Assembly: GCA_020631175.1 (NCBI GenBank)
Contig: JAHDHT010000012.1
Location: 4,494 to 36,748, forward strand
Source: Chitinophagales bacterium
Lineage (GTDB): Bacteria > Bacteroidota > Bacteroidia > Chitinophagales > JAHDHT01
Reading direction: 5' to 3'
DNA length: 32,255 nt
Shown here: positions 1 through 25,977 of the stretch, one piece after another
Position numbering within the stretch: position 1 is the stretch's first letter
Layout: each line of letters begins with the position of its first letter
Position numbers and translations under genes: made by a program
The notes under the pieces: model-generated
Databases searched by the model: none
What the model was told of the DNA's origin: nothing
Seen by the model: the letters and a program-made list of their open reading frames with translations, nothing else

Positions 1-3000
1 GATTGTACTGAGCCTGTTTGTTTTTATGATGCTGTAATTGTAAGCACAGATTGCAATACTGACGGAACATACGATCTTGTAGTTGATGTATCAATTACTG
101 ATCCTTTGTCAAATGAATTCTTAGTAACAGTTGATGGAGTACAATTCGGTCCTTACGCTGATAATTATAATGACGGATTAGAAACCATCACATTAAATGG
201 CTTAGCCGGAGACGGAACAGCAAATGTTCAAGTTACGGTTGCTGATGCTGCAGATGGAACTCCGTTGCAACCTGAAGTAATATTTATTTCAGAATTGCAT
301 TATGATAATTTCGGTGGAGATGTTGACGAACAAATAGAGCTTACTGCCTTAGCAGGAACTGATTTGGCTAACTATGAAATTTATTTGTACAATGGTAACG
401 GTGGGGCAGTATACTCTACTGTCTCATTATCCGGAATTGTTTCAGATGAAGCAAATGGATATGGTACTGAAGTGTTCGATGTTACCGGAATACAAAACGC
501 CGATTTTGATGGAACAGGTGATCCGGATGCAATTGCATTAGTTGACATTACTGATCCGGCAAATCCGATTGTAATTCAATTCATTTCCTACGAAGGAACA
601 TTTATTGGATATGGTGGTCCTGCTGATGGAATTTTATCAGAAGATATTGGAGCTGAAGAACCGGGTGAAGTAGGAGAGAGTCTTCAATTAACAGATGCCG
701 GATGGATAGGACCTGCAGCAAATAGTTTTGACGTGTTAAATGCAAACCTCACTGCTGATAGTACACCCGTTATACAGTCTTGTTCTACAACAATTGATTT
801 TGATGCACCATTGTGTACCGTTTGTATGTTAACCGCTTCCGTTGAAATAGGAGATTGTGATGCTAATGATCTGTTTAATATTGATGTTACTGTTGATGAA
901 ATGGATCCTGCTTCTGCTGAATTTACCATAGATCTGCTTGATGCAAATGGCAATGCTATTTTCAACTATGGAACATTTGATTATACAGCAGACCCTGTTT
1001 CAATAGGCCCGTTCATCGGAGATAATATTACAGCCTATAGTATCAGCGTTTCTGATACCGCAGATCCTGATTGCAGCCAGATTGTAAACTTTGGTCCTGT
1101 TTCATGTGAAATAGTTTATAATCCTTCCATCGAAATCGTAAAAGATGATAGTACACCTGATCCAAATGATGCTTCAGACATGGATGGAACAGATACTCAA
1201 ACAGTTGATGAAGGAGATGATGCAAACTTTACAATTACGGTTACCAATACAGGAGATGAAGATTTGACAAATGTTGTTGTGACTGATCCAAATGGAGCAG
1301 ATTGTGAAGCAACATATACTGATAATGATGGAATATTAGCAGTTGGAGAATCATGGACCTATACCTGTACCGTTACAGATGTATCAGCTGACTTTGTAAA
1401 TACGGCTTTCGTTTCTGCAGATGGAGTAAATTCCGGAACTACGGTAAATGATGATGATGCAACAGCAGTTATCGTTGTGCCAATTACTTGTCCTTCATTA
1501 TTTACTTTTGCAGTAGATCAAAATGTAATTTGCAGTAATACAGAAATTAATTTCACAGCAAGTTTAAATCCTGACGATGCAGAAAATGGAACACTTACAA
1601 TTTCTGATGAGGATGGAAATATTCTTACAAATCTTACAGATGATAATGGTGATTTTAATTACACAGGTTCAATAATAGTTACAAATAATTCATGTGCACC
1701 TACAACCAATAACTACACCGTTACTTTAACATGTACGGATACCGGAGATGTAACAGGTTTCGCAACTGAAGATGTTACCGTTTATCCTTCATCGATAGAA
1801 CAATATGTTTCAGTTGTGACCGATGAAGAAAATTGTATGGCAAATGCAGTAATTGATCCGGCATGTGATGGATTTATTAATGCAACAACTTCATTGAATC
1901 AGGCAGGATTACCTGGACAATTATTTAACTATAGTTTCTGTTTTAGTTATTTCAGTGATTCTTCGCCGGGATGTTTCGATTCAGATTTCTGTATTGATGG
2001 TTCGTTTGAATGTGAAGGATGTGAATTTGATGCAGGCATCCTTCCAACCGGAATAAACAAAACATGTTTTGGTAGTACGGTAAGCATACCGGTCTTTGGA
2101 CAGGAAGTTGGGTCAGGAGGAGTATTAACTTATATTCTTCATGATGGAATAGACAATAATATTGGAACAATTTTAGGAAGTAACCAAACTGGAACATTTA
2201 CCAATGATGGAGATTATCCTTTAAATGTCGATTTATTTATCTGCACGGTTGCCGGTTTTGCAACTCCGAATGGCATTCCTGATTTCAATGATGATTGTAC
2301 AGACATTTCAGATGTATGTACACCAGTTAGATTCTTACTTCCGGTTACAATTGAAAGTAATGAAATCTGTAATGATGCAACTGGTGAATTTACCGTAACC
2401 TTTACCGTTACCGGAGGCACACCGTCTGAGCCTGGATTTAGTGGAACTTATGATGTTACCGGTGATTATACCGGAGAGGTATTTGCTGATACTCCAACTA
2501 CAATTGGTCCATTCTCAGATGGAACAACGTGGAGCATAGAGGTTGATGATGACAAAGGTTGTGGAGCTGTGGCAAGCGGAACTGTTCAATGTGAAAAATT
2601 ACCAATTGAGTTGATTAGTTTCACAGGTGAAGTGATTTCGGACGGAAACCTTCTAAAGTGGGAAACAGCAACTGAAATTAATAATGATTATTTCACATTA
2701 GAACGATCTGTTGATGGAGTAAACTTTGAATTCCTTACAACAATTGAAGGTGCAGGTAATTCCTATTCAAACCTCGGTTACGATTATCTCGATAAAGATG
2801 CGCCAAACGGGCTTAGTTACTACAAGTTATGGCAAACTGATTTCGATGGAACTACAAGCTATGCAGGCATAGTTACGCTGCAAAGAGGTGAATCTTCTTT
2901 CGATATTGTTAGCTTAACTCCGAATCCTGCTGTTAATACAATCAGTATTCAATGGCAATCTCCAACCGAATCTGATATTGAAATTGAAATATTGGATGCA

Positions 3001-3150
3001 ATAGGGCAGTTAGTGGCAGTTTACAATGTAAATAGCATTGACGGACTCAATGAAGCATCCTTGAATATATCAGATTTCGCTTCAGGAATTTATTTCGTAA
3101 ATATGAGAAGCGGAGATAAACTGGATACAATTAAGTTCATTAAGCAATAA
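1..3150 (+). CDS. Large T9SS-secreted multidomain cell-surface protein, 5'-partial (N-terminus lies upstream of the window)
   Basis: Frame 1 is open from nt 1. The TTG at 106 used by the ORF track is internal. Contains an LTD-like segment, a DUF11-like repeat, Cys-spaced modules shared with the next gene, a pre-CTD module ('LISFTGEV..KWETATEINNDYFTLERSVDG..YYKLWQTDFDGT') and a C-terminal tail ending 'GIYFVNMRSGDKLDTIKFIKQ'. Confidence 0.85.
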   Translation, partial: DCTEPVCFYDAVIVSTDCNTDGTYDLVVDVSITDPLSNEFLVTVDGVQFGPYADNYNDGLETITLNGLAGDGTANVQVTVADAADGTPLQPEVIFISELHYDNFGGDVDEQIELTALAGTDLANYEIYLYNGNGGAVYSTVSLSGIVSDEANGYGTEVFDVTGIQNADFDGTGDPDAIALVDITDPANPIVIQFISYEGTFIGYGGPADGILSEDIGAEEPGEVGESLQLTDAGWIGPAANSFDVLNANLTADSTPVIQSCSTTIDFDAPLCTVCMLTASVEIGDCDANDLFNIDVTVDEMDPASAEFTIDLLDANGNAIFNYGTFDYTADPVSIGPFIGDNITAYSISVSDTADPDCSQIVNFGPVSCEIVYNPSIEIVKDDSTPDPNDASDMDGTDTQTVDEGDDANFTITVTNTGDEDLTNVVVTDPNGADCEATYTDNDGILAVGESWTYTCTVTDVSADFVNTAFVSADGVNSGTTVNDDDATAVIVVPITCPSLFTFAVDQNVICSNTEINFTASLNPDDAENGTLTISDEDGNILTNLTDDNGDFNYTGSIIVTNNSCAPTTNNYTVTLTCTDTGDVTGFATEDVTVYPSSIEQYVSVVTDEENCMANAVIDPACDGFINATTSLNQAGLPGQLFNYSFCFSYFSDSSPGCFDSDFCIDGSFECEGCEFDAGILPTGINKTCFGSTVSIPVFGQEVGSGGVLTYILHDGIDNNIGTILGSNQTGTFTNDGDYPLNVDLFICTVAGFATPNGIPDFNDDCTDISDVCTPVRFLLPVTIESNEICNDATGEFTVTFTVTGGTPSEPGFSGTYDVTGDYTGEVFADTPTTIGPFSDGTTWSIEVDDDKGCGAVASGTVQCEKLPIELISFTGEVISDGNLLKWETATEINNDYFTLERSVDGVNFEFLTTIEGAGNSYSNLGYDYLDKDAPNGLSYYKLWQTDFDGTTSYAGIVTLQRGESSFDIVSLTPNPAVNTISIQWQSPTESDIEIEILDAIGQLVAVYNVNSIDGLNEASLNISDFASGIYFVNMRSGDKLDTIKFIKQ
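274..735 (+). other. Lamin-tail-domain (LTD)-like segment of the ExeM/NucH 'IHYDN' subtype
   Basis: 'VIFISELHYDNFGGDVDEQIELTALAGTDLANYEIYLYNGNGGAVYSTVSLSG...DPDAIALVD...IQFISYEGTF...GESLQL' matches from memory the LTD pattern seen at the N-termini of extracellular nucleases. Motif recognition only. Confidence 0.5.
1126..1479 (+). other. DUF11 / 'conserved repeat domain'-like Ig-fold module
   Basis: 'SIEIVKDDS...DEGDDANFTITVTNTGDEDLTNVVVTDP...CE...LAVGESWTYTCTVTDVSADFVNTAFVSA' fits the pattern 'F.I.V.N.G...L.NV.V.D.......L..GES....C.Y.V'. Confidence 0.5.
2902..3147 (+). other. T9SS type A C-terminal sorting domain (CTD)
   Basis: The last ~82 aa are 'LTPNPAVNTISIQW...IEILDAIGQLV...GIYFVNMRSGDKLDTIKFIKQ'. 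This is the canonical beta-sandwich CTD pattern (NP-start, G.Y.V.., K.IK. end). Confidence 0.75.
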
Positions 3151-3171
3151 GAACTTTAAATATGATTAAAA

Positions 3172-3199
3172 GGGGTAATGAAAATTACCCCTTTTTTAT
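3172..3199 (+). terminator. Rho-independent terminator after the first surface-protein gene
   Basis: GGGGTAAT-gaaa-ATTACCCC is a perfect 8-bp stem followed by TTTTTTATT, 22 nt after the stop codon. Confidence 0.7.
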
Positions 3200-3297
3200 T
3201 GAATAAATGCTTCCAAATCAAATATTAAAGGCATTTAGTATATATTAATTAATGAGTAATTTTTAAGTCTTTTCCTTTCTTTTTAATGTTAAAATGA

Positions 3298-3305
3298 TAA
3301 TTTTG
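3298..3305 (+). promoter_or_regulatory. Candidate Bacteroidota -7 promoter box
   Basis: TAATTTTG matches the TAnnTTTG consensus. It lies 67 nt upstream of ATG 3372 and downstream of the preceding terminator. Motif-only call. Confidence 0.35.
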
Positions 3306-3371
3306 TAGGTGGCTTAGTGCGCTAAGTCAGCAAAACGACACCTGACGCATTGAAATAAACAATAGATAGTC

Positions 3372-6300
3372 ATGAAAATAAACACTACTCTTTTTAATCT
3401 ACTGTGCGCAGTAGCATTGATTTTTAGTGTGCATTATCTACAAGCTCAGGATTGTCCTGCAGCCTACACAGGTATTGCAACCAACAGCGAAGATCAATGT
3501 AATGATAACCTGGCTTTTCCAAATGTCGACGATGTTTTTGGAGGTCTGGTTGACGGTATGGGGCAACCATTTACCGGTTCAGGTGCTGTAATAGCATGGA
3601 ATATTGATCCTTTAACTATTTTACCTGCTGCTGTACCTCCGGGCGTATGTGACCCGGTTAGTACAACTTACGTTGCAACAGTTGAATGTTTATCAGGAAC
3701 TGTTTTATTTGCTGACATATATACCTATCAGGTAAATGTATTCCCTGGCGCTGATGCTTATTCTGTTGATGTAATTGCCGGAGATTGCGGTCAATTATCA
3801 GCTATTGTGGCAAGTCCGGGTTCATGTGATGTTTCTGTTGTTTATAATGAAATAATTCCTGCTGATCCTGCAGCTTGTCCTGCCGGAGCAGATGGTTCAT
3901 TTACATATACTGCAACTCCGGCTAATGGAGGAAGTTGCTGGTCTGAATCTGGAGGAGGAATCATTCCTGCATGTGATACATGTGCGGATTGTCCTGATCC
4001 TTCCAACTTTATTCCACCACCAAACTTTGCTGCATGCTCCGGTGCTTTAATTACATTACCAGACCTTTCTGATTTTGTCGATACAAATGGAAATTCAGGA
4101 GCTACCTTTAGCTGGACTTCTGATGCCGGTTTCGATAGTATGGGTGCAAGCACAGGTTCAGAAGTTTTAGTAAATACAGATTGTGCGCCGCTTGTTGTCA
4201 CCTATACATATGGTATTAGTTGTACCGCAACTGGAGAAAATCTCGGTTCAGGAGCATTCTCTGTGACTGTTTTCCCTACAGATGTTTCTGCATTTGTAAC
4301 TGCAACAGATGGTATTTGTGAAGCTACTGTAACAGTAGATCCTTCATGTGCAGGCGTATTAACTGTTACTCAAACAAGTCCTGCTTCATTCCCGGCTCAG
4401 GCAGGAACAAGTGGAACGGCTACATGGGATGTTGCTTATATAGGAGATGACATCCTTCCAACTGAATGTGTTACAGATTTTACTGTATCAGCAAATTATG
4501 ACTGTCCTTCTGAAGAATGTCCTGTTTCTACATACCCGGGTCAATTAAGTTATGATGTTTGTTCTGGCGACGTAGTAGCCTTAGACGACTTAGCCGGTTT
4601 TGTTTCTTCAACTGATAATGTTGAATTTTTATGGACAGGTAGTAATGGTTTTAACAGTAATGGAGCGAGCTCAGGCTCAGAAACCTTAACAAATACAGGT
4701 TGCGCACCAATGACCGTAACGTATACTTATAATATATTATGTACACTAAACGGTGGTTCTGTAATCGATCAAGGTTCATTTAATGTAACTGTTTATCCTA
4801 CTGATATTTCTTCATTCGTTACGGCAGTACCGGGTGGATGTACAGCAACATTCTCTGTAATGTCTGGTTGTGAAAACTTTATAACAGTTACTCCTTACAA
4901 CGCTTCTACTGGTGAAGTTGGAGTAGGAACTGTAACTGCAAGCCTTAACGGATCTAGCTGTGCACCTTTGTATACAGAATCAGTAGCTGTTGATTGTAGT
5001 GTAGATTGTCCTTCATTTGTTTCGTCATCTATTAGTGCTAATGAAGTTTGTAGCGGACAAGCATTGACTGTTTCAGTTCAATTGTCGAATTCAACAAACG
5101 CTATAGCATCGGTAACCGTTGGTGGTCAAAGCACAACTCTAACAGGAGCTGGCAATGGATTATTTACGGGCAACGTAGTTCTTACAAATGCTGATTGTAA
5201 TGCAAGCACTTCTAACTTAAATATTGTTGCTATTTGTACAGATGATAACTCTATTCTTGCAATGTTAAATGAGACAGTAACAGTTTATCCATCTTCATTG
5301 AATGCTTTCGTAAATGTAAGTTCTTTGGATGGATGTAATCTTCAGGCAACTGTTAATGCCGGTTGTGAAAATGTAATCAGTATAGCAGGAAGTCCGGTAT
5401 TTATGGGAGCTGCAGGAACAAGCGGAACTGCTACATTTAACTTTACTTACTCTGGAGATGCACCTTGTCTGGCAAATAGCTTTAGTGTTGATTTCCCTTA
5501 CAACTGTGCTCCAATGGGTGATGTTTGTCCTATGACGAATGTTCAGATTCCTGCGTCTATGGATGTATGTGGTGGTCAGTCAGTTGTACTTCCTGATTTA
5601 TCAGACTTCCTATTCATTACTGATCCTGATCAAAATGGTTTTGTTTCCTATAACTGGATAGCGACTAATGGATATTCAAGTAATGGTGCAAGTTCTGGTT
5701 CAGATACTCCGGTAAATAATACCTGTAACGTTCAAACCGTAATTTATTCATATAGCATAACATGTGATTTGAATGGTGCATTACTTGCACAAGGTTCAAT
5801 GTCAGCGAATGTTTATCCTTCCAATTTGGCTGCTTTTGCAACTGCTAACGATGGTGAATGTTCTACTTCGGTAACTATTGACCCGACTTGTGGTAGTAAT
5901 ATTATTGTTACACCTCCAAGTCAGACTGCAGCTCCGGGAACTTCCGGTCAACATAACTATATGTTAGTATGGAATGGTGGAGGAACTTGTTCAGATGTAG
6001 CAACTATTACTGCTAACTATAACTGTGCAGGTCAAATGGACGATTGTCCGACTGCAATTATTGCTTCTGCTTCAAGCCTGCAAGCTTGTGATGGGGAAGT
6101 GGTTAGCTTATCAGCAACAAGTAACAATGGATCTGCTATTAACACAACATGGACAGATCAGAATGGAAACGCAGTAGCAAATCCTTCTGCAGTAACGGTT
6201 ACTTCAAACGGATGTGCCCCAGGTTCATTTACTTATACTGTTCTGGCAACTTGTGTTGATAATCCGGCTGTTTCATTTACTGAAACAGTTACCGTAACAG

Positions 6301-8192
6301 CATATCCGTCAGATATCAGTGTTTATGTAACTCCGAACTTCACACCTTGTTCAGCTACTTTTACTGTTCAATCAGGTTGTGAACCTTATATAAATGTTAC
6401 TTCATACACAGCAGCAGCCGGTGAAATGAGTATGGTTAACGTTTCAGCTTCTGCTAATAATAATTTTAATTGCTCAGCTTCAATTACTCAAACTGCAAAT
6501 ATTGACTGTCCGGGTGGAGGTTGTTTCGCTATGGCTCCAACTATCTCTTCGGACAATCCTTCAATTTGTATCGGAGATGGAGAAGTAGTAAATATTTCAC
6601 TTGATTCTTCAAGCCCGAATGATCAAATCGTATATGTTGTTACTGATGCAACAGGAACAACTATTTTAGCTGGTCCTACAACCGATACACAGTTTAATTT
6701 TGACGGAGCTCCTGCAGGTACTTGTTTAATATGGGCAGTAGCACATGATGGTACATTAGTAGCACCAACAGATCAGGTTGCTGATCTTCAGGGTTGTTAT
6801 GCACTTTCTAATCCGGTTTCAGTAATACGTGAAGATTGTAACCTTGGTGGTTTTGATTGCGGAACTTGTTTCCCAGATACTTTGGTATTCTGTACGAATC
6901 CGATTACACCGGTAGAAATTTGTTTGGATTGTGATGGTTCAAATGTAAGTGTAACAGATGTTGAAAGTTTATTCTTCTGCTCAATAGAAAATATTGATGA
7001 TCTGGATGGATGTTTCACATATACTCCACTTCCAAATATGGAGAATTTCTCACCAGATATTCTTACAGCAACTGTTTGTGAGCCTGGTACAAATAATTGT
7101 TGTGAAGTAGTTATTCAGGTTGATATTCAGGAAGATTGTACACCAGAGCCTGTTGATTGCGAAGAATTAATTGAAGTATGCACAGCTCCTATAACTCCGG
7201 TTGACATATGCATTGATTGCTTGTTGGATGGAAGCATTGAAGCAGAAATTGATACGATCTATAGTTTATGGGGATGTTCTATCAATATGATCGGAGATGC
7301 TTGTTTCGAATATGTACCACTTCCGAATCTTGAAGATTTTGGTGGAGATACGGTAATCGTCGAGTACTGTGATAATGCAGGAAATTGTTATCAAACAACA
7401 GTTGCCATTGCTGTAACTGAAGATTGTGAAGATGTTGAACCTCCTGTGGTTGATGAAACTTGTATCGAATATTATGAAGGTTGTATTGCTCCACTTGAAA
7501 CATTCGATTTCTGTCTCGATTGTACTTCAGGTATGAATACAACGGTCGTTATAGACTCAATATATTCTTTATGGAATTGCACCATTAACATGCAGGATGA
7601 TTTCTGCTTCGAATATGTTGCTTTACCAAATATGGATCTTGTTCCTGCTGATACGGTTTACATAGATTATTGTGATACGGTAACTAATGAATGTAGTACT
7701 GCATTATTAGTGATGACATTCAATGATTGTGATGATGATGGTAATGTTATCCCTAACGGAGGAACAGCCGGTGACCAGTTTAATGGTGACATGGGTTCTT
7801 TAGGAGTTCAAAACGATGATACCGTTGTGGATATCATTGATGATGAAGATGATGTAACAGGTGATGATGAAACATCAACAGTTGCTACCAACGAAGATGG
7901 TCAGGTTCGTGATAATTTCGGAGCTTCTGAAGTAGTTTATTCAGATGAACTTCATGCTTATCCAATACCAAGTTCTGACTTCCTGTATATTAATGTAAAC
8001 TTAGATGCTACCGAAAAAGCAGAATTAGTTACTTATAATGCTCAGGGTCAACTTGTTGAAAGTAAAATTGTTTACACAGTAGATGGAAATGCAGTGCTGA
8101 AACTTAACATTCAAGCATATGCTAAAGGTGTTTACTTTGTTTCACTCAAACAGAAAGGTATTGTGAAAACATCTCAATTCATTAAAAACTAA
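3372..8192 (+). CDS. Giant (1606 aa) secreted, Cys-rich, polyacidic repeat protein with T9SS C-terminal sorting domain; probable adhesin/surface-coat protein
   Basis: Signal peptide 'MKINTTLFNLLCAVALIFSVHYLQAQ'. Six 8-Cys modules, one shared 'X' module, three ~96-100 aa Cys repeats, a D/E-rich linker (7731..7946), and a CTD ending 'GVYFVSLKQKGIVKTSQFIKN'. Confidence 0.9.
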   Translation: MKINTTLFNLLCAVALIFSVHYLQAQDCPAAYTGIATNSEDQCNDNLAFPNVDDVFGGLVDGMGQPFTGSGAVIAWNIDPLTILPAAVPPGVCDPVSTTYVATVECLSGTVLFADIYTYQVNVFPGADAYSVDVIAGDCGQLSAIVASPGSCDVSVVYNEIIPADPAACPAGADGSFTYTATPANGGSCWSESGGGIIPACDTCADCPDPSNFIPPPNFAACSGALITLPDLSDFVDTNGNSGATFSWTSDAGFDSMGASTGSEVLVNTDCAPLVVTYTYGISCTATGENLGSGAFSVTVFPTDVSAFVTATDGICEATVTVDPSCAGVLTVTQTSPASFPAQAGTSGTATWDVAYIGDDILPTECVTDFTVSANYDCPSEECPVSTYPGQLSYDVCSGDVVALDDLAGFVSSTDNVEFLWTGSNGFNSNGASSGSETLTNTGCAPMTVTYTYNILCTLNGGSVIDQGSFNVTVYPTDISSFVTAVPGGCTATFSVMSGCENFITVTPYNASTGEVGVGTVTASLNGSSCAPLYTESVAVDCSVDCPSFVSSSISANEVCSGQALTVSVQLSNSTNAIASVTVGGQSTTLTGAGNGLFTGNVVLTNADCNASTSNLNIVAICTDDNSILAMLNETVTVYPSSLNAFVNVSSLDGCNLQATVNAGCENVISIAGSPVFMGAAGTSGTATFNFTYSGDAPCLANSFSVDFPYNCAPMGDVCPMTNVQIPASMDVCGGQSVVLPDLSDFLFITDPDQNGFVSYNWIATNGYSSNGASSGSDTPVNNTCNVQTVIYSYSITCDLNGALLAQGSMSANVYPSNLAAFATANDGECSTSVTIDPTCGSNIIVTPPSQTAAPGTSGQHNYMLVWNGGGTCSDVATITANYNCAGQMDDCPTAIIASASSLQACDGEVVSLSATSNNGSAINTTWTDQNGNAVANPSAVTVTSNGCAPGSFTYTVLATCVDNPAVSFTETVTVTAYPSDISVYVTPNFTPCSATFTVQSGCEPYINVTSYTAAAGEMSMVNVSASANNNFNCSASITQTANIDCPGGGCFAMAPTISSDNPSICIGDGEVVNISLDSSSPNDQIVYVVTDATGTTILAGPTTDTQFNFDGAPAGTCLIWAVAHDGTLVAPTDQVADLQGCYALSNPVSVIREDCNLGGFDCGTCFPDTLVFCTNPITPVEICLDCDGSNVSVTDVESLFFCSIENIDDLDGCFTYTPLPNMENFSPDILTATVCEPGTNNCCEVVIQVDIQEDCTPEPVDCEELIEVCTAPITPVDICIDCLLDGSIEAEIDTIYSLWGCSINMIGDACFEYVPLPNLEDFGGDTVIVEYCDNAGNCYQTTVAIAVTEDCEDVEPPVVDETCIEYYEGCIAPLETFDFCLDCTSGMNTTVVIDSIYSLWNCTINMQDDFCFEYVALPNMDLVPADTVYIDYCDTVTNECSTALLVMTFNDCDDDGNVIPNGGTAGDQFNGDMGSLGVQNDDTVVDIIDDEDDVTGDDETSTVATNEDGQVRDNFGASEVVYSDELHAYPIPSSDFLYINVNLDATEKAELVTYNAQGQLVESKIVYTVDGNAVLKLNIQAYAKGVYFVSLKQKGIVKTSQFIKN
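3450..6509 (+). repeat. Six tandem protein-level copies of an 8-cysteine module of ~165-180 aa (first copy divergent)
   Basis: Module boundaries by hand count: 3450-3986, 3987-4505, 4506-4997, 4998-5507, 5508-6026, 6027-6509. Shared motifs are 'CP..', 'C(S/G)G', 'N(T/G).CAP..VTYTY.I.C', 'F.VTVYP(T/S)D(I/V)S.FVT', 'G.C.AT..V...C'. The DNA copies are diverged, so this is not a recent duplication. Confidence 0.8.
6840..7730 (+). repeat. Three tandem ~96-100 aa Cys-rich repeats (cadherin-like / 'tandem-95'-like flavour)
   Basis: 6840-7139, 7140-7427, 7428-7730. Each has 'C(T/I)(N/A)P(I/L).P(V)..C(L/I)DC ... SL(W/F).C(S/T)I(N/E) ... CF(E/T)Y.(P/A)LPN(M/L) ... D......(Y)C(D/E) ... C ... (E/N)DC'. 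Confidence 0.8.
7947..8189 (+). other. T9SS type A C-terminal sorting domain (CTD)
   Basis: 'LHAYPIPSSDFLYINVNL...LVTYNAQGQLV...GVYFVSLKQKGIVKTSQFIKN'. This is the only lysine-containing part of the protein (8 K in ~81 aa). Confidence 0.75.
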
Positions 8193-8216
8193 GAAGTTTA
8201 AGAATTAAAATACAAA

Positions 8217-8247
8217 CCCGGATCGTTCAATCGATCCGGGTTTTTTT
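8217..8247 (+). terminator. Rho-independent terminator after the giant gene
   Basis: CCCGGATCG-ttcaat-CGATCCGGG (9-bp GC-rich stem) followed by TTTTTTT. Confidence 0.8.
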
Positions 8248-13510: not shown

Positions 13511-14806
13511 ATGGTATTAATTAGTAGTCTTGTCTTTTTAATAATAATGTTATCTCTTGTAGGCTTATTACTTTTTGCTAAGTCTAAATTGGTTCCTTCA
13601 GGTGATGTCACCTTGGTCATTAATGGTGATGATGCGAATCCTGTTGTAACAAAACCGGGAGATACACTTTTAACAGCCTTATCTGAACAAAACTTATTCC
13701 TTCCTTCTGCTTGTGGAGGAGGTGGTACATGCGCTATGTGCTTATGCCAGGTGACAGAAGGCGGCGGAGATGTTTTGCCGACAGAAATGAATCACTTAAC
13801 CAGAAAAGAAGCTAAAGAACATTGGAGATTGGCTTGTCAGGTAAAAGTGAAAAACGATATGAAAGTTCAGGTGCCTGAAGAGGTATTTGGAATTAAAAAA
13901 TGGGAATGTGAAGTAGTCTCTAACTACAACGTTGCCTCTTTTATTAAAGAGTTTGTAGTTAAACTTCCGGAAGGAGAGAGCATGCATTTTGAATCGGGTG
14001 GATATATTCAGATCGATGTACCGAAAATAACGGTGCCCTTCAAGGATATGGATATTTCACCACTTCCTAACGATCCGGCCGGAAAGGATAAATATCAGTC
14101 TGAATGGGATAAATTCCAATTATGGGATTTAGTTATGAAGAATGAAGAAGAGCAATTCCGTGCTTATTCGATGGCTAATCACCCTGCTGAAGGAAATGTT
14201 GTAATCCTTAATATTCGTATTGCAACGCCACCTTGGGATAGAGCTAAAAACACCTGGATGAATGTTAATCCGGGAGTGTGCTCATCATATGTTTTCGGAT
14301 GTAAGCCAGGAGATAAAGTGGTAGTTTCTGGTCCTTATGGTGAATTCTTTATTAAAGAAACCAAAAAAGAAATGGTTTACATTGGTGGTGGTGCCGGTAT
14401 GGCTCCATTAAGATCACACCTTTTCCATTTATTTCACACATTAAAAACTACTGACAGAAAAGTTTCATTCTGGTATGGTGGTAGAACAAGAAGAGAATTA
14501 TTCTATATCGATGAATTCAGAGCCATTGAAAGAGAATTTCCAAACTTCAAATTTTATGTAGCATTAGATAACCCGTTACCGGAAGATAACTGGAATGAAA
14601 AAACTACAATTGAAGAAGAAGGAGATGGTTTCATCGGATATATCATGCCGGTTTGTTATAACATGTATTTAAAAAATCATCCGGAACCGGAAGAAATAGA
14701 ATACTATTTCTGCGGACCTCCTTTAATGAATGCTTCGGTAATTAAAGCATTAGATGAATTAGGTGTACCGGAAGAAAATATTGCCTTTGATGATTTCGGA
14801 GGTTAA
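13511..14806 (+). CDS. nqrF: Na+-NQR subunit F (2Fe-2S ferredoxin + FAD/NADH domain)
   Basis: N-terminal TM helix, 2Fe-2S motif 'CGGGGTCAMCLC...C', FAD motif 'RAYSMAN', and 'GGGAGMAP' NAD(H) loop. Confidence 0.95.
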   Translation: MVLISSLVFLIIMLSLVGLLLFAKSKLVPSGDVTLVINGDDANPVVTKPGDTLLTALSEQNLFLPSACGGGGTCAMCLCQVTEGGGDVLPTEMNHLTRKEAKEHWRLACQVKVKNDMKVQVPEEVFGIKKWECEVVSNYNVASFIKEFVVKLPEGESMHFESGGYIQIDVPKITVPFKDMDISPLPNDPAGKDKYQSEWDKFQLWDLVMKNEEEQFRAYSMANHPAEGNVVILNIRIATPPWDRAKNTWMNVNPGVCSSYVFGCKPGDKVVVSGPYGEFFIKETKKEMVYIGGGAGMAPLRSHLFHLFHTLKTTDRKVSFWYGGRTRRELFYIDEFRAIEREFPNFKFYVALDNPLPEDNWNEKTTIEEEGDGFIGYIMPVCYNMYLKNHPEPEEIEYYFCGPPLMNASVIKALDELGVPEENIAFDDFGG

Positions 14807-15866
14807 AAATATAAGGTCGGCTTTTGCCGGCCTTTTTTCTTGGGGATTATTCTTTAGCTTCTTTTTTATTGGAAGTACCTTTTTGGTTTCATGCAATCAG
14901 AATTATAAAAGAGATGTAAAAATTACGGGTAAAACTATGGGTACTACCTATACCGTTAAATACATTTCAAATGCTGAAAATCAAGTTGAAAAAGAGCAAA
15001 TTGATAAGGTATTAATTGCCGTAAATAAGTCGATGTCAACTTATGATCCCAATTCAACTATTTCAAGAATTAACGAAGACACAGTTTCATGGCATGCATT
15101 AACTTTTAATGACTTCATGTTTAAAGATAATTTTGAACTGTCAGTTAAAATGTTCAATGCAACTAATGGTTATTTTAACCCGGCTATTGGTCCTTTAGTT
15201 GAGTATTGGGGATTTGGACCGGAAAGAAAGAAACCGCAGTCGATAGATCAAAAGCAAATAGATCTTTTAAAACAACGATGTGATTTCAAAAGCATTAGCC
15301 TGGTTAATCTTGAAAACAATTCTTTCATGATAAAAAAGCAACATCCTCAATCTAAATTAGATTTCAATGCAATAGCAAAAGGATACGGAGTTGATAAAGT
15401 TGCTCAATTACTTGAGAAAAATAATATTGAAAGATATATGGTGGAAATAGGTGGAGAGGTTCGATTAAAAGGACTGAACGCCGCAGAAGTACCATGGGCT
15501 ATAGCTGTTTCAAAACCGGAAAAGAAATCCAACCAGATCGAATTAAAAGGTATTCTGAATAATAAAAATACAAGTATAGCTACTTCTGGTAATTATCAGA
15601 ATTATTTAAAGATAGGCGATAAGGATTATGGTCATATAATCAATCCGAATACGGGCATGTCGGAGCAAACAGATTTGTTAAGCGCTACTGTTTTACACGA
15701 GAACTGCGCAGTAGCTGATGCTACTGCTACAGCATGTATGGTAATGGGTTTTGATGCCTGTAAAAGTATGATCGAAAAAAGCCCAAATCTTGAGGCTTAC
15801 TTAATTTATAAAGATTCGGAAGGAACAAACAAGTATTATAAAACAGCCGGTGTTTCAATTCGATAA
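14763..15866 (+). CDS. apbE: FAD:protein FMN transferase (flavinylates NqrB/NqrC), lipoprotein
   Basis: Lipoprotein-type signal '...FFFIGSTFLVSC', 'MGTTYTVKY' at the start of the mature domain, 'FNAIAKGYGVDKV', 'IATSGNYQN', 'HIINPNTG'. Start is ATG 14763 or ATG 14790; both overlap the nqrF 3' end. Confidence 0.85.
   Translation: MYRKKILPLMISEVKNIRSAFAGLFSWGLFFSFFFIGSTFLVSCNQNYKRDVKITGKTMGTTYTVKYISNAENQVEKEQIDKVLIAVNKSMSTYDPNSTISRINEDTVSWHALTFNDFMFKDNFELSVKMFNATNGYFNPAIGPLVEYWGFGPERKKPQSIDQKQIDLLKQRCDFKSISLVNLENNSFMIKKQHPQSKLDFNAIAKGYGVDKVAQLLEKNNIERYMVEIGGEVRLKGLNAAEVPWAIAVSKPEKKSNQIELKGILNNKNTSIATSGNYQNYLKIGDKDYGHIINPNTGMSEQTDLLSATVLHENCAVADATATACMVMGFDACKSMIEKSPNLEAYLIYKDSEGTNKYYKTAGVSIR
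14813..14838 (+). terminator. Intrinsic-terminator-like hairpin 9 nt after the nqrF stop, lying inside the apbE signal-peptide codons
   Basis: aaGGTCGGC-tttt-GCCGGCCtt (7-9 bp stem with one G-U pair) followed by a TTTTTT run. Confidence 0.55.
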
Positions 15867-17039: not shown

Positions 17040-18155
17040 TTAGCTTAATAACATTAAATCTTTTTTAAATTTATTAGCAAGTTCTTTTAAATAATTACTG
17101 GCATTCGCTATTGCGTCGTCTTTATTTTTTGCAATATCGACAATGCTGTAAATTTTATCTGTATATATCTCTGCCATCTGATCTTCTTTGATCTTATTTA
17201 TTCCGGAAAATAAAATTAGTGGTTTATTATATTGTCTGCATAGTTTAGAAACTCCCGAAATAACTTTACCGTCTAAAGATTGACTGTCAATACAGCCTTC
17301 ACCACTAATGATTAAATCTGCCGATTTAATTTTATCTTCTAATCCGGTTACTTTAGAAATGGCATCAAAACCGTTAACGAGCTTTGCATTAAAAAAAGCA
17401 AGGATGGATGCAGAAACTCCCCCTGCTGCTCCGCATCCATCCATTTGAGAAAGATCGATTCCGACATTATTTTTAATTATGTTGCAATAATGTCGTAAAC
17501 CTGAATCCAGCATTTCGATTTCTTTCTCACTTGCACCCTTTTGTTTTCCATATACATAAGCGGCACCGTTTTCACCGTACAGCTTGTTATTTACATCGCA
17601 TAAAACTTCTATTGAAATTTTTTCTAAATCAAGTTCTGATTGATTATTAATAGAGTCGATAGAAATCAAATTTTCTCCGATAGGTTTTAGTTTTTCTTTT
17701 TCATTATTTAGAAATTCAATTCCAAAAGCATTTGCTAAACCAATTCCACCGTCATTTGTAGCACTCCCTCCAATGAAAAACAATATTTTATCAGCCCCGT
17801 TTAAAATGGCATGTCTGATCATCAACCCCGATCCATTTGTACTTGTATACATAGGATTTCTTTCAGACGGATCTAGTAATACTAAGCCACTTGCCTTAGC
17901 CATTTCAATATAAGCCGTATTATTTTTTTTGTAGTAGTCAGAAGTAATTGGTCTTCCAATCGGGTCTACCGTTTCAACTTTTATTTTATTTAATGCCAAA
18001 AATTTTGATAAGATTTCAATTGAACCATCTCCTCCATCAGCCAGTGGATGACTACTTGTGTCGACACCACCATTCAGAGTTGAAGAGATAATTTCGCAAA
18101 TCTCAAATGCACTTAGTGAACCTTTAAATTTATCCGGAGCAATTAAAATTTTCAT
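17040..18155 (-). CDS. Glycerate kinase (GlxK/GarK family)
   Basis: 'MKILIAPDKFKGSLSA', 'LADGGDGS', 'IGGSATNDGGIG', 'ISGEGCIDSQSLDGKV'. Confidence 0.9.
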   Translation of the reverse strand: MKILIAPDKFKGSLSAFEICEIISSTLNGGVDTSSHPLADGGDGSIEILSKFLALNKIKVETVDPIGRPITSDYYKKNNTAYIEMAKASGLVLLDPSERNPMYTSTNGSGLMIRHAILNGADKILFFIGGSATNDGGIGLANAFGIEFLNNEKEKLKPIGENLISIDSINNQSELDLEKISIEVLCDVNNKLYGENGAAYVYGKQKGASEKEIEMLDSGLRHYCNIIKNNVGIDLSQMDGCGAAGGVSASILAFFNAKLVNGFDAISKVTGLEDKIKSADLIISGEGCIDSQSLDGKVISGVSKLCRQYNKPLILFSGINKIKEDQMAEIYTDKIYSIVDIAKNKDDAIANASNYLKELANKFKKDLMLLS

Positions 18156-18167
18156 TTGATAACTACT

Positions 18168-19733
18168 TTAAAAAAAATAGGGGACACAGAGACTAATTAT
18201 GACTATCAAAATGAAAAAGCCAATTAGTAGTAAAACTTTATTCTTGTCAAACCCTTCTTTGTCAGGTAATAATTCAAATGATACATCTGAGTTTTTATTA
18301 AATAACATGCTTGAAGTAATCGCAACAACCAATGTTACAATTGCGCCAATTGCATTCCACCAAAACCAAAATACACTTGGTACTAATTGCCATAAAATAA
18401 TATTAACACCTACTCCGACAAAAATTCCAAGATTAATACCTCTTGCATTTACTGACTTAATCCCAATAGCAGCAATAAACGTAGCCAATATAGGTCCGTA
18501 AAAAACGGAACCAATTTTATTAATAGCTTCAATTACCGTTTCTGCAATAGAGCCGGTAAAGAAAGCTAATATAATACAGACCAATCCCCAGAATAAAGCA
18601 GTCAATCTGGAAAACAGCATGTAATTTTTGGTGCTTAAATTGCCATTAATGTTAAAGAAATCTTCAACGGAAGCAGCACTTAATGAATTGATCGCACTAC
18701 TTAATGATGACATAGCCGCAGAAAAAATGGCGATTAAAAGAACACCAATTATACCATTTGGTAAATAATCTTTTATAAAAACCGGAATCATCAAATCTGG
18801 TTTATCAGCTGGAATCTGACTGATAAATTCCGGTGTAATTAAAGCGAAGGTTCCAACCACCAAACCCATTAAACAATAAACAAATGTAATGGGGAAGCGA
18901 AGTAATCCATTGAACAATAATGTTTTTTTGACGGTTCCGAGGCTTTGAGCTGAAAAAAGTCTTTGTACCTGACTTTGATCTGTTCCATAATAAGATGCAT
19001 ATAAAAAGAAGCCACCTAATAACATTGGCCAGAAACCAAATTCATCTCCCTTTTGAAGTCCCATTGAACTGAAGTTAACAGCATTTAATCTTGATCGATC
19101 CAAGTTGGCAGTAAAGTTTTCCCATCCTCCCAAATAATAAAGACCGGCAACTAAACATATTACTATTCCGAAAAACAATAAAAACATTTGAATCATGTCT
19201 CCATATACAACAGCTTTCATTCCTCCGACGAGCGAATATATTAATGTAACAAAACCAATAATTACAATAGTTTGCCACATGGGTATATCCATCACGCTTG
19301 TAAGAATAAGCGCAACTGCATAAATCATAACACTTGTTCCGAAGGCGCGGCTGATTTGAAAAACCGCACTTACTATTATTCTGGTAGCTTTACTGAATCG
19401 CCTTTCTAAATAAGCATAAACACTTACAATTCCTGATTTATACATAGGAGGGATGAGGAAAATCATGAGAAACAGCATGGCCAGCGGAACAGCAAATTCA
19501 TAGGTTAACCACATCATACCACCACCGTCTTTTAAACCGACAAATGCAGGTGCAGAAATAAAACTAATTGCTGATAACTGTGTAGCTATAGTACTTAATG
19601 ACAAAGGAAGCCATCCAAAACTTTTACCGCCTAAGAAATAGTCTTTTTTATCTTTGTTTTCACGAAAAGCTAATCCAAGCAATAAAAATCCAACTATATA
19701 AATAAAGATTACAATATAATCGACGTAATTCAT
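18168..19733 (-). CDS. Sodium:solute symporter (SSS) family transporter
   Basis: About 13-14 TM segments, 'YFLGGKSFGW', 'GGMKAVVYGDMIQM'. Lies 12 nt upstream of glycerate kinase and 19 nt downstream of the GH gene. Confidence 0.85.
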   Translation of the reverse strand: MNYVDYIVIFIYIVGFLLLGLAFRENKDKKDYFLGGKSFGWLPLSLSTIATQLSAISFISAPAFVGLKDGGGMMWLTYEFAVPLAMLFLMIFLIPPMYKSGIVSVYAYLERRFSKATRIIVSAVFQISRAFGTSVMIYAVALILTSVMDIPMWQTIVIIGFVTLIYSLVGGMKAVVYGDMIQMFLLFFGIVICLVAGLYYLGGWENFTANLDRSRLNAVNFSSMGLQKGDEFGFWPMLLGGFFLYASYYGTDQSQVQRLFSAQSLGTVKKTLLFNGLLRFPITFVYCLMGLVVGTFALITPEFISQIPADKPDLMIPVFIKDYLPNGIIGVLLIAIFSAAMSSLSSAINSLSAASVEDFFNINGNLSTKNYMLFSRLTALFWGLVCIILAFFTGSIAETVIEAINKIGSVFYGPILATFIAAIGIKSVNARGINLGIFVGVGVNIILWQLVPSVFWFWWNAIGAIVTLVVAITSSMLFNKNSDVSFELLPDKEGFDKNKVLLLIGFFILIVIISLCVPYFF

Positions 19734-19752
19734 ACAATAATATTTAAACTAA

Positions 19753-21069: not shown

Positions 21070-21074
21070 AGATA

Positions 21075-21114
21075 TAAATAAAAAGGGGTAAAAGCATTCG
21101 CAGACTTTTACCCC
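21075..21114 (-). terminator. Intrinsic terminator/attenuator between the TonB receptor and the GH63 gene
   Basis: Perfect 10-bp stem GGGGTAAAAG/CTTTTACCCC (21085-21094 / 21105-21114) with a 10-nt loop. On the minus strand it is followed by TTTTTATTTAT. Confidence 0.65.
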
Positions 21115-21179
21115 TGATTCCAAATTTTATGAAAGTCTACATTTAATTACTCATTTAAAAGTAATTAACCAAACACGAA

Positions 21180-23795: not shown

Positions 23796-23888
23796 AGCAT
23801 AATGTATTAGTTAAAAGATTTATTTCTGTCAGCTCTGAGGTAATTGCTGATTTAAAATTACATCTAACACCAATGAAAAAATTGGTAG

Positions 23889-23917
23889 TATTCTATCGAT
23901 TAATAACACTATTCTAT
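23889..23917. promoter_or_regulatory. Candidate AraC-type operator: 8-bp direct repeat TATTCTAT spaced 21 bp start-to-start
   Basis: TATTCTAT occurs at 23889-23896 and 23910-23917, in the divergent intergenic region between the TonB receptor operon and the AraC-family gene. A near-consensus minus-strand -7 box TAATTTTA lies at 23853-23860. Confidence 0.3.
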
Positions 23918-23961
23918 AAATAATTTATTATTTTAATATAAGCCAATTAGATTTAAGTGCT

Positions 23962-25023: not shown

Positions 25024-25977
25024 ATGACAAATTCTTTTTTAGCCAAAATGATGGCTTTCTTCATGATCTGCGGTGTTGTTACATTTACTTCATGTACTGA
25101 AGATGATGGTGGTGACACTCCGGTAATTGAACTTAATGTAGTTGAAACGGCACAAGACGATGCTCAATTTTCGACTTTAGTTGATGCTTTAGTAAAAGCT
25201 GATCTCGTTAATACATTAAATGACGGAACCTACACCGTTTTCGCACCAACGAATGCAGCGTTTAATCAGCTTTTTACAGATTTAGGTGTAAGTGGCTTAG
25301 ACGATTTATCGGCTGCAACTTTAACACCTATTCTATTATATCATGTTGTTGCGGGTGATGTTAGAAGTACTGACTTAACTTCTGGTTATGTTGGAACAGC
25401 AAGTACCGGACCTAATAATCAAGCTCTTAAACTTAAAGTAGAAGTAGAAAATGGTGTTACTTTAGATAATGCAGTTAATGTTACAAGTGCTGATGTAGTC
25501 GCAACAAACGGTGTGATTCATGTAATAGATGAAGTTTTATTACCGAACAATGTTGTTAATATCGCTTTACAGAACAGCAATTTTACTTCATTAGTTGCTG
25601 CATTAACAAGAGCAGATTTATCGTTTGATTTTGTAGACTTTTTAAGTGGTGACGGTCCGTTTACCGTATTTGCACCAACCAATGATGCATTTCAGGCATT
25701 GCTTGATAGTAATGATCAATGGAATTCTTTAAACGACATTGATGTAACTACGCTTGATGCTGTTTTAAAATACCATGTAATAAGTGGTACAAACTTTGAA
25801 AGTGGGGCACTTTCTGATAATCTTGTAGGTACTACTGCAGGAGGAAATGAGTTTACCATTAACACGGCGAACGGAGTAACTGTAACTGATCCAAATGGAA
25901 CTTCGAATGTAGTTTTGGCGGATGTACAAGGAACAAACGGTGTCGTTCACGTGATCGACAGAGTATTAATACCTTAA
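25024..25977 (+). CDS. Fasciclin (2x FAS1) domain lipoprotein
   Basis: Lipobox 'VTFTSC'. Two FAS1 repeats, with 'FTVFAPTNAAF...NGVIHVIDEVLLP' and 'FTVFAPTNDAF...NGVVHVIDRVLIP'. Confidence 0.9.
   Translation: MTNSFLAKMMAFFMICGVVTFTSCTEDDGGDTPVIELNVVETAQDDAQFSTLVDALVKADLVNTLNDGTYTVFAPTNAAFNQLFTDLGVSGLDDLSAATLTPILLYHVVAGDVRSTDLTSGYVGTASTGPNNQALKLKVEVENGVTLDNAVNVTSADVVATNGVIHVIDEVLLPNNVVNIALQNSNFTSLVAALTRADLSFDFVDFLSGDGPFTVFAPTNDAFQALLDSNDQWNSLNDIDVTTLDAVLKYHVISGTNFESGALSDNLVGTTAGGNEFTINTANGVTVTDPNGTSNVVLADVQGTNGVVHVIDRVLIP

Follow-up and report, generated by a model that had tools for sequence, protein, structure and literature searches.

The window analysed here (32,255 nucleotides of a Chitinophagales bacterium, contig JAHDHT010000012.1) encodes a giant type IX secretion system (T9SS) cargo protein in which not a single lysine (Lys) occurs over 1,546 consecutive residues, 96% of the protein. 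Its open reading frame (ORF), below called the flagged ORF, had been singled out in an initial annotation made from the DNA letters. Arginine (Arg) and histidine (His) are nearly lost as well, and the depletion of Lys and Arg is kept in homologues of 30-48% identity, which shows it to be maintained by selection. It affects the passenger (the exported part without its C-terminal sorting domain) and, judging from the related sequences, is a class-wide habit of giant secreted Bacteroidota proteins rather than a peculiarity of the flagged gene. Tentatively, we explain it by selection against cationic side chains of any kind in the portion of the protein found beyond the outer membrane.

The flagged protein is built up as follows. 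The names R180, D100 and C95 and the corresponding hidden Markov models (HMMs) were made in this analysis.

3372..8192, plus strand: flagged ORF, 1,606 residues (translation).
3372..3446, plus strand: Sec signal peptide, residues 1-25, MKINTTLFNLLCAVALIFSVHYLQAQ, then DCP; contains K2 (inspection of the translation).
3378..8015, plus strand: codons 3-1548, free of Lys, with 2 Arg and 4 His (recount, with other-frame and base-composition controls).
3453..6527, plus strand: six R180 repeats of about 170-180 residues each, residues 28-1052 (self-BLAST, custom HMM).
6552..6851, plus strand: one D100 domain of about 100 residues, residues 1061-1160 (custom HMM).
6828..6830, plus strand: R1153, codon CGT, at the single conserved basic position of D100 (alignment, codon check).
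6876..7733, plus strand: three C95 domains, cysteine-rich, of about 90 residues each, residues 1169-1454 (self-BLAST, custom HMM).
7734..7955, plus strand: acidic linker rich in aspartate, glutamate and glycine, residues 1455-1528 (translation).
7908-7910, plus strand: codon of R1513 in the acidic linker, 17 residues N-terminal to the sorting domain (codon check).
7956..8192, plus strand: T9SS type-A sorting domain, residues 1529-1606, plus stop codon (PF18962, TIGR04183).

A computational recount agrees with the initial annotation that residues 3-1548 hold no Lys and two Arg; the latter, R1153 (in VIREDC) and R1513 (in GQVRDN), are the only Arg of the protein. Lys is found at positions 2, 1549, 1565, 1577, 1585, 1593, 1595, 1599 and 1605. 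K2 is the sole Lys upstream of the sorting domain, to which 8 Lys had been ascribed correctly (within the last 78 residues, Lys 10%). The number of His had to be corrected from three to four (21, 861, 1125 and 1528). The description as a giant T9SS cargo from an AT-rich genome holds too: Por_Secre_tail (PF18962) matches residues 1530-1603 with 37.7 bits (cut-off 27), TIGR04183 scores 34.3 bits (cut-off 23), and the genome has 36% GC (32-41% in the window).

A nucleotide-composition artefact is ruled out. The same DNA encodes 59-61 Lys and 63-157 Arg in two alternative frames, and about 3.7% Lys is predicted from the base composition of the gene alone. The cytoplasmic and membrane proteins of the window are Lys-rich, as had been stated, with 15 ORFs pooling to 7.3% Lys and 3.0% Arg. 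From the Lys frequency of a fasciclin lipoprotein in the window (5/317), the chance of such a Lys-free run had been put at about e^-25, and this arithmetic is correct ((1-5/317)^1546 = 2e-11).

By our own calculation, the isoelectric point (pI) of the passenger is about 2.3 and its net charge at pH 8.1 about -180; the pI of 4.05 returned by Biopython is probably the lower limit of that routine and not a real pI. The pI of the sorting domain is about 9.3. Aspartate and glutamate (Asp + Glu) make up 12.1% of the passenger versus 11.6% of the cytoplasmic pool, and an excess of these residues as in halophile-type acidic proteins is not found in the passenger. Heavy O-glycosylation was considered and rejected, since the Bacteroidota motif D-(S/T)-(A/I/L/V/M/T) is not enriched (8 observed versus 10.5 expected from composition).

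The case for selection comes from the homologues. A word-based search found three relatives, namely P0002 (48% identity), P0003 (44%) and P0004 (30%), which contain 8 Lys and 3 Arg per 1,357 residues, 5 Lys and 1 Arg per 1,198 residues and 7 Lys and 7 Arg per 2,373 residues, respectively. Among all possible nonsynonymous single-base changes in the passenger, 11.4% yield Lys or Arg. At the 702 sites differing from P0002, however, Lys or Arg is involved (on either side) merely four times, where about 80 cases would be expected from mutation. For P0004 it is one of 634 differing sites. The binomial probability of so few cases is 4e-31 if the mutational supply is taken as reference, and still 1e-12 if the Lys+Arg frequency of ordinary T9SS cargo is used instead. 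With the depletion kept at 30-48% identity, the initial suggestion of selection against basic residues is supported. R1153 sits in the sole conserved basic column of D100 (Arg 79%, Lys 12%, thus 91% basic over 1,414 aligned instances), which suggests that basic residues are removed except where the structure fixes them.

A recent amplification of a Lys/Arg-free unit is also ruled out, as the repeats inside the flagged protein are only 28-42% identical to one another (self-BLAST). Comparison of the flagged protein with the genome collection gave no match, and the identical protein is not recorded among the encoding contigs. With NqrA as query, the best match in the genome collection was 63% identical and belonged to an uncultured Chitinophagales MAG (metagenome-assembled genome), so that no near relative of the source organism is represented there. 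A homologue search using the sorting domain alone gave no candidates, and one with the sorting-domain alignment gave short fragments only.

The flagged passenger was compared to ordinary T9SS cargo. As background, metagenome ORFs encoding the sorting motif VYPNPAxD were picked regardless of their passenger, among the matches listed. This resulted in 122 ORFs, of which 119 are positive with the sorting-domain HMM and 86 have a passenger of at least 200 residues. The 86 passengers have a median Lys+Arg content of 5.5% (5th percentile 1.9%) and a pooled Lys content of 3.14%, at which a stretch of 1,546 residues would be free of Lys with a probability of 4e-22. A Lys+Arg content below 1% is seen in a single passenger, a 321-residue fragment, and the ten passengers of at least 1,000 residues contain 1.8-7.9%. 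Relative to the median ORF of the own locus, the Lys+Arg content is 0.02 for the flagged passenger, against a median of 0.59 and a minimum of 0.14 for the background. In gut and rumen Bacteroidales loci, the cargo contains 3.9-5.5% Lys. Together, these values rule out a general T9SS rule. Ordinary T9SS cargo is moderately Lys/Arg-poor, and the family of the flagged protein lies at an extreme.

Expressed as the ratio of passenger to ordinary cargo, Lys stands at 0, Arg at 0.06 (0.13% in the passenger), His at 0.14, tryptophan (Trp) at 0.38, tyrosine (Tyr) at 0.62, cysteine (Cys) at 4.6, Asp at 1.28 and Glu at 0.93. Valine (Val) and proline each occur about 1.45 times as often as in ordinary cargo; threonine (Thr), serine (Ser), asparagine (Asn) and glycine (Gly) are within about 20%. 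As a side observation, the 321-residue background fragment (locus L089, CEWQ01034053.1, minus strand) has 0 Lys, 0 Arg and 9.3% Cys and looks unrelated. It may represent a Lys/Arg-free, Cys-rich T9SS cargo outside the studied family.

The gap had been described as confined to the exported passenger, and this was borne out. The sorting domain is spared in the flagged protein, and it is richer in Lys+Arg than the passenger in all 124 type-A family members (pooled sorting domains: Lys 5.05%, Arg 4.26%; pooled passengers: Lys 0.51%, Arg 1.49%). In the window, the periplasm-facing proteins are Lys-rich (ApbE 9.8%, a DUF255 thioredoxin-like lipoprotein 8.0% and NqrC 9.9%). The Lys-poor proteins are those predicted to be surface-exposed, namely the flagged protein, the product of the neighbouring T9SS cargo gene (gene B) and the fasciclin lipoprotein. 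Since the sorting domain, the signal peptide and the periplasmic proteins keep their Lys, the constraint appears to track the final location outside the cell and not the export route. The transport or anchoring constraint that had been offered as one explanation is therefore disfavoured: the Lys-rich sorting domain shares the Sec/T9SS route, Lys abounds in the window's periplasmic proteins, and about 5.5% Lys+Arg is present in ordinary cargo.

In Bacteroidota lipoproteins, acidic residues after the lipid-anchored Cys act as export signal. The fasciclin lipoprotein is probably surface-exposed, given such acidic residues behind its Cys. They are absent from the DUF255 lipoprotein (26604-28700, minus strand; LITGC then SSGRMQ) and from ApbE (14763-15866; LVSC then NQNYKR). 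This contrast between lipoproteins fits a sorting into surface-exposed and periplasm-facing proteins, with one to two proteins per class.

Beyond the sorting domain, Pfam and NCBIfam recognise nothing in the flagged protein. The passenger has no Pfam match even at E<=5, and at the same level no repeats-in-toxin (RTX) nonapeptide, BIg or cadherin Pfam domains are found in the flagged protein. By inspection, the signal peptide has the typical n-h-c organisation and ends in AQ, followed by D. According to the alignment and an AlphaFold2 (AF2) model (predicted local distance difference test, pLDDT, of 93), R180 is a tandem pair of immunoglobulin (Ig)-like beta-sandwiches, with 8 invariant Cys in each repeat. 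With this model, Foldseek retrieved, as its best PDB matches, tandem Ig/cadherin pairs and fragments of GhpA, the grappling-hook protein that Aureispira secretes by the T9SS, although the matches are weak (template-modelling score, TM, of about 0.42). The AF2 model of C95 (pLDDT 87) is a beta-sandwich as well, with cadherin-, Ig- and PKD-like Foldseek matches at a TM of 0.5-0.63. Among all PDB chains, there was no significant match for the flagged protein (phmmer) or the R180 profile (hmmsearch).

The invariant, even-numbered pattern suggests that the Cys of R180 are locked in disulfides. On the basis of the models, the R180 and C95 units would be disulfide-stapled Ig/cadherin-like sandwiches, with the bonding presumed from that pattern. 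The flagged ORF is thereby predicted to encode a fibre-like cell-surface protein that is exported by Sec and then by the T9SS. By analogy with established T9SS type-A cargo, the sorting domain would be cut off at the surface. The mature product would then be about 1,500 residues long and carry some 180 negative charges against only one or two cationic side chains, as the retention of R1513 depends on the cleavage site.

In two of the homologues (P0002, residues ~880-940, and P0003, residues ~720-780), the position that D100 has in the flagged protein is occupied by Asp-rich DxDxDGxxD repeats (DSDGDGIPDF...DTDGDGIPNYLDLDSDGDGF...) that were spotted by eye and that Pfam does not call in either protein. 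This looks like a domain swap. The repeats resemble thrombospondin type-3 repeats, which bind Ca2+.

The depletion extends far beyond the flagged gene. An exhaustive profile-free search returned 427 related proteins, most of them matching through D100. The best 150 of these 427 have a median whole-protein Lys+Arg content of 2.25%, with Lys nearly always below 1%. The three domain families are Lys/Arg-poor throughout:

R180: 189 instances in 24 proteins, Lys 0.45%, Arg 0.29%.
D100: 1,400 instances in 130 proteins, Lys 0.36%, Arg 1.59%.
C95: 59 instances in 11 proteins, Lys 0.26%, Arg 0.14%.

Roughly half of the Arg of D100 falls in its one conserved column. This domain occurs in up to 30 copies per protein; besides conserved Cys, it has the motifs T-D and G-C...L-S-N and a terminal Arg. 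From these alignments, D100 looks like an undescribed and widespread surface domain of Bacteroidota.

Eleven of the 152 family representatives lack both Lys and Arg over 1,000 or more consecutive residues, the longest such run being 3,359 residues. By this measure (1,150 residues), the flagged protein ranks seventh, with six of the 152 being longer. P0144, an NCBI protein of 3,427 residues with a type-B (CHU_C) sorting domain, has neither Lys nor Arg in residues 3-3361; its remaining basic residues are five Lys/Arg in the C-terminal sorting domain and one Arg in the signal peptide. The run of P0045 measures 2,073 residues. A type-A sorting domain is present in 124 of the 152 representatives (custom HMM), and of the others at least eight are clear type-B proteins and several are truncated. 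The named members belong to metagenome-assembled genomes (MAGs) of Saprospiraceae, Chitinophagales and Sphingobacteriales and to Sanyastnella coralliicola.

The arrangement of gene B next to the flagged gene recurs at the locus of the orthologue P0002 (L081, JGI sample 3300000977). All four giant ORFs of this locus are Lys/Arg-poor, with one stretch of 844 residues that has neither, and the cytoplasmic neighbours contain about 7% Lys. The JGI samples with the closest homologues carry the prefix BBAY, which we take to denote Botany Bay marine samples. A depletion specific to the flagged gene is consequently not supported, as gene B, the fasciclin lipoprotein and the giant proteins of L081 are poor in these residues too. 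A habit shared by the secreted proteins, which the initial annotation had named as counting against its view, is thereby borne out in part.

Upstream of the orthologue in L081, the genes for a 2,780-residue and a 2,328-residue protein appear to be one frame interrupted by a stop (2535-2662 of BBAY70_10000015). The motif TVNGSSTFPGA(T/S)NTFND(N/D)QGN runs on across the gap between them. Given this repeat continuity, gene B may form the C-terminal end of a protein that exceeds 5,000 residues; alternatively, the L081 copy may be a pseudogene or misassembled.

Which pressure could remove the basic residues so thoroughly? In the explanation that we tentatively favour, purifying selection would strip every dispensable Lys, Arg and His from the extracellular part, so that the fibre would become a uniform polyanion without positive patches. 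Self-repulsion would keep it soluble and extended. It would also avoid sticking to anionic polymers, be they the lipopolysaccharide and exopolymers of the cell itself or those of algae and the environment, and its contacts would run via bound Ca2+ or Mg2+. This mechanism would apply to giant surface proteins with Ig repeats in Chitinophagales, Saprospiraceae and some Flavobacteriales-type lineages. That the fibre resists trypsin-like proteases and costs less nitrogen and energy would be by-products that may add to the advantage.

The loss of Lys, Arg and His with nearly unchanged Asp, Glu, Thr, Ser, Asn and Gly points to cations as the target, and not to extra anions. Selection against cationic side chains fits this joint loss, the unchanged Asp+Glu content, the dependence on the final location and the class-wide distribution. 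It agrees with the finding that Cytophaga hutchinsonii needs the T9SS for Ca2+ acquisition (PMC7906972), and with the observation that proteins of marine microbes are more acidic than those of their freshwater relatives, most sharply so in secreted ones (PMC6706942). The Asp-rich DxDxDGxxD repeats spotted by eye in P0002 and P0003 were taken as a further hint at divalent cations. Among the initial proposals, a polyanionic coat comes nearest to it. Its polyanionic character is retained in our explanation, although the charge would result from the removal of cations and not from added acidic residues (Asp 1.28x, Glu 0.93x).

Several points weigh against selection of this kind. The mechanism (extension, non-sticking and cation-mediated contacts) is deduced from composition. 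As Asp+Glu is not enriched (12.1% vs 11.6%), a simple model in which more negative is better is unsupported. His should be largely neutral at seawater pH, and an upward pKa shift on the polyanion has to be assumed. On similar surfaces, ordinary T9SS cargo functions with about 5.5% Lys+Arg, so avoidance of stickiness is no general requirement. A purely marine-salinity explanation is unsafe, since the MAGs with some of the family members are labelled simply as Sphingobacteriales or Chitinophagales. Furthermore, charge does not account for the reduced Trp (0.38x) and Tyr (0.62x).

Leaving the precise pressure aside, we tentatively propose that these proteins might constitute an unrecognised Bacteroidota class of cation-free surface megaproteins. 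These would be T9SS-exported Ig-repeat fibres, in which the selected exclusion of Lys, Arg and, for the most part, His over 1,000-3,400 consecutive residues, with exceptions at rare positions fixed by structure, would be a functional design, either as a non-stick polyanionic brush required for fibres to move or extend on an anionic cell surface or as immunity to Lys/Arg-specific proteases.

Protease immunity, another of the initial proposals, is rather unlikely as the primary cause in our judgement, although part of the evidence suits it. Here, the fibre, as a long-lived and extended structure, would shed the Lys/Arg cut sites of trypsin-like and gingipain- or clostripain-like enzymes, whether these come from the own T9SS, from competitors or from grazers. 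Lys and Arg are indeed both gone, and only from the part that stays outside. The passenger is effectively trypsin-proof, with predicted tryptic fragments of 1,128 and 360 residues for its mature form, and in disulfide-stapled sandwiches, cleavage would mainly have to take place at exposed Lys and Arg. Several of the retained basic residues, moreover, precede acidic ones, both in the flagged protein (R-E-D and R-D-N) and in the homologues (K-I-E-D, K-N-D-D and R-D-L), and a basic residue followed by an acidic one is a poor trypsin site. However, a sevenfold depletion of His and a more than twofold depletion of Trp relative to ordinary cargo are not predicted by this explanation. The window contains no peptidase gene, nor is there one less than 10 kb from the homologues at loci L081-L084, and most T9SS cargo tolerates about 5.5% Lys+Arg.

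An economy of resources seems improbable as the driving force. An exported protein that cannot be recycled would be made cheaper by swapping the nitrogen-rich Lys, Arg and His for Thr, Ser, Asp, Gly and alanine. It is in line with this idea that the passenger costs 20.9 high-energy phosphate bonds per residue versus 24.5 in the cytoplasmic pool, that it contains 0.11 side-chain nitrogen atoms per residue versus 0.29, and that Trp, Tyr, phenylalanine (Phe), methionine (Met) and His are all reduced. A lower production cost of extracellular proteins is established (PMC2932507). Yet Asn is enriched (7.1% vs 5.9% in the cytoplasmic pool) despite carrying the same extra nitrogen as Lys, and isoleucine (Ile), Val, Phe and Cys are kept or enriched though they cost as much as Lys or more. 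The discarded sorting domain is Lys-rich (10%) even though it is lost as well. A shift in composition would be predicted, not a total absence across 1,500-3,300 residues, and ordinary T9SS cargo is already cheap in composition with its 5.5% Lys+Arg.

We hold a control of export or folding to be similarly improbable. A cation-free chain could stay unfolded and soluble in the reducing, low-Ca2+ cytoplasm and fold in the periplasm with disulfides and Ca2+, as in RTX adhesins; alternatively, positive charges could hinder the passage of very long chains against the membrane potential. The 84 Cys of the passenger (8 invariant ones per R180), its highly acidic nature and the strongest depletion in very long proteins would suit such a control. 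Against it, the Lys-rich sorting domain and the signal peptide take the same Sec/T9SS route, the periplasmic proteins of the window with signal or lipoprotein leaders are Lys-rich, and the ten long background passengers (at least 1,000 residues) are exported with 1.8-7.9% Lys+Arg.

The avoidance of reactive nucleophiles is very improbable. Lys, His, Arg and free Cys are targets of the aldehydes, quinones, tannins and halogenating oxidants of algal surfaces, and their removal would prevent cross-linking. Lys, Arg and His are removed, Trp, Tyr and Met are reduced, and the invariant, even-numbered Cys are suggestive of disulfide-locked Cys. The presumed marine origin of the closest homologues and a putative mannosylglycerate cluster in the window were also counted in its favour; the argument is nevertheless entirely circumstantial, the passenger keeps 3.1% Tyr and 1.5% Met, and family members occur in MAGs from possibly non-algal habitats. 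Finally, that the depletion has no function, with domain families that began without Lys/Arg and kept this state by inheritance, repeat duplication or compositional bias, is hardly tenable: much of the state may well be inherited, all three families being Lys/Arg-poor wherever found, but the duplications are old (repeats 28-42% identical), the mutational bias of the genome favours Lys codons (about 60 Lys in other frames), the sorting domain of the same gene is Lys-rich, and homologues that differ at about half of the sites almost never do so by Lys/Arg (P<=1e-12), by which this explanation is effectively refuted.

In architecture, the flagged protein resembles the Bacteroidota cell-surface fibres GhpA from Aureispira (PDB 9flp, 9flw, 9g8b; bioRxiv 10.1101/2024.01.29.577165) and SprB from Flavobacterium johnsoniae. 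A signal peptide, a T9SS sorting domain and very long chains of disulfide-stabilised Ig-like sandwiches are shared. The likeness is architectural: GhpA shows no similarity in sequence, the structures match weakly (TM ~0.42), and R180, D100 and C95 belong to no Pfam family. The text of the GhpA preprint contains the words 'lysine' and 'acidic' 0 times each and leaves a Lys/Arg-free habit unmentioned. No earlier description of Lys/Arg-free T9SS cargo was found in the full-text literature, the coverage of which is incomplete, so that a prior mention is possible.

In lysine deserts of GC-rich proteomes, Arg usually replaces Lys. Bacteroidota are not known to have a Pup-proteasome system. The flagged protein falls under the published definition of a lysine desert and goes far beyond its 150 residues or 50% of the length (PMC10665810). 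The deserts of that study are cytosolic, are commonest in Actinobacteria and are read as avoidance of ubiquitin or Pup tagging (PMC10665810). The flagged protein is, in contrast, extracellular and encoded in an AT-rich genome, and Arg and His are missing too. It also differs from halophile-type proteins, in that Arg is not retained (0.13% in the passenger). Halophilic proteins usually keep their Arg. With these and with the acid-shifted secreted proteomes of marine microbes it shares the very low pI and the Lys deficit, strongest in externally exposed proteins (PMC6706942). The published marine shift amounts to a fraction of a percent to a few percent and consists mainly of more Asp/Glu (PMC6706942). 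In the flagged protein, Asp+Glu is normal and the cations are almost wholly removed.

RTX adhesins are Ca2+-dependent proteins of the type I secretion system (T1SS) with acidic tandem beta-sandwich extenders and Asp-rich linkers. Acidic tandem sandwiches at the surface and an Asp-rich linker are likewise found in the flagged protein, and DxDxDG-type repeats occur in its orthologues (by eye). Unlike the adhesins, it depends on the T9SS and not on the T1SS, is Cys-rich and has no RTX or BIg match in Pfam. The cheaper amino-acid make-up is shared with economical extracellular proteins (PMC2932507), although Lys is here totally absent while Ile, Phe, Val, Cys and Asn are kept. Judged from its sequence, the protein family would take the known acidity of secreted proteins to an extreme, under selection and across a whole class, by means of domain families that are uncharacterised.

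If selection indeed acts against cationic side chains, a testable design rule for surface fibres would follow: no cationic side chains outside the outer membrane. It would be relevant to the question of how T9SS adhesins, gliding proteins and grappling-hook-like fibres remain extended and functional on an anionic cell surface. With two tryptic fragments of 1,128 and 360 residues, the flagged protein and its relatives are expected to be essentially invisible to trypsin-based proteomics. The surface and exoproteomes of such bacteria may be under-described, and standard studies would then miss cation-free megaproteins systematically. The three domain families are absent from Pfam, and for D100 alone, 130 representative proteins hold at least 1,400 copies. 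In addition, naturally Lys-free, disulfide-stapled Ig scaffolds could possibly be used for site-specific amine chemistry or where resistance to trypsin-like proteases is desired.

The features around the flagged gene are the following:

1..3150, plus strand: gene B, the 3' part (1,049 codons) of a neighbouring T9SS cargo gene (Pfam DUF7507/DUF11 and Por_Secre_tail).
3168-3195: terminator-like hairpin with a perfect 12-bp stem, directly after the gene B stop (consensus match).
8214..8243, plus strand: terminator-like hairpin with a perfect 12-bp stem and then a T run, just past the stop of the flagged ORF (consensus match).
25024..25977, plus strand: fasciclin lipoprotein (two Pfam Fasciclin domains, lipobox FTSC then TEDDGGD).

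The passenger of gene B contains 0.7% Lys and 0.3% Arg. Over its first 865 codons, basic residues are limited to K381, K687, K852 and R777, the same four that had been reported as K346, K652, K817 and R742 with a numbering offset of 35. Gene B contains one R180 repeat (residues 497-674, nucleotides 1489-2022; E 2e-25), and a second D100 copy was not detected in it. The fasciclin lipoprotein, which is not a T9SS cargo, has 1.6% Lys (5/317) and 0.95% Arg. Two terminator-like sites are found in each of the two hairpin regions versus 0.1 expected, and these flanking consensus matches suggest that the flagged gene is a transcription unit of its own.

No T9SS components are encoded within the 32-kb window. 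Its remaining genes include the operon of the Na+-translocating NADH:quinone oxidoreductase, YchF, glycerate kinase and a symporter, among others. At 17040-24819, a cluster encodes the glycerate kinase, a sodium:solute symporter, an MGH1-like mannosylglycerate hydrolase, a TonB-dependent receptor and an AraC regulator. Mannosylglycerate is a compatible solute of red algae. The cluster resembles a locus for mannosylglycerate uptake and catabolism, which would fit an alga-associated lifestyle.

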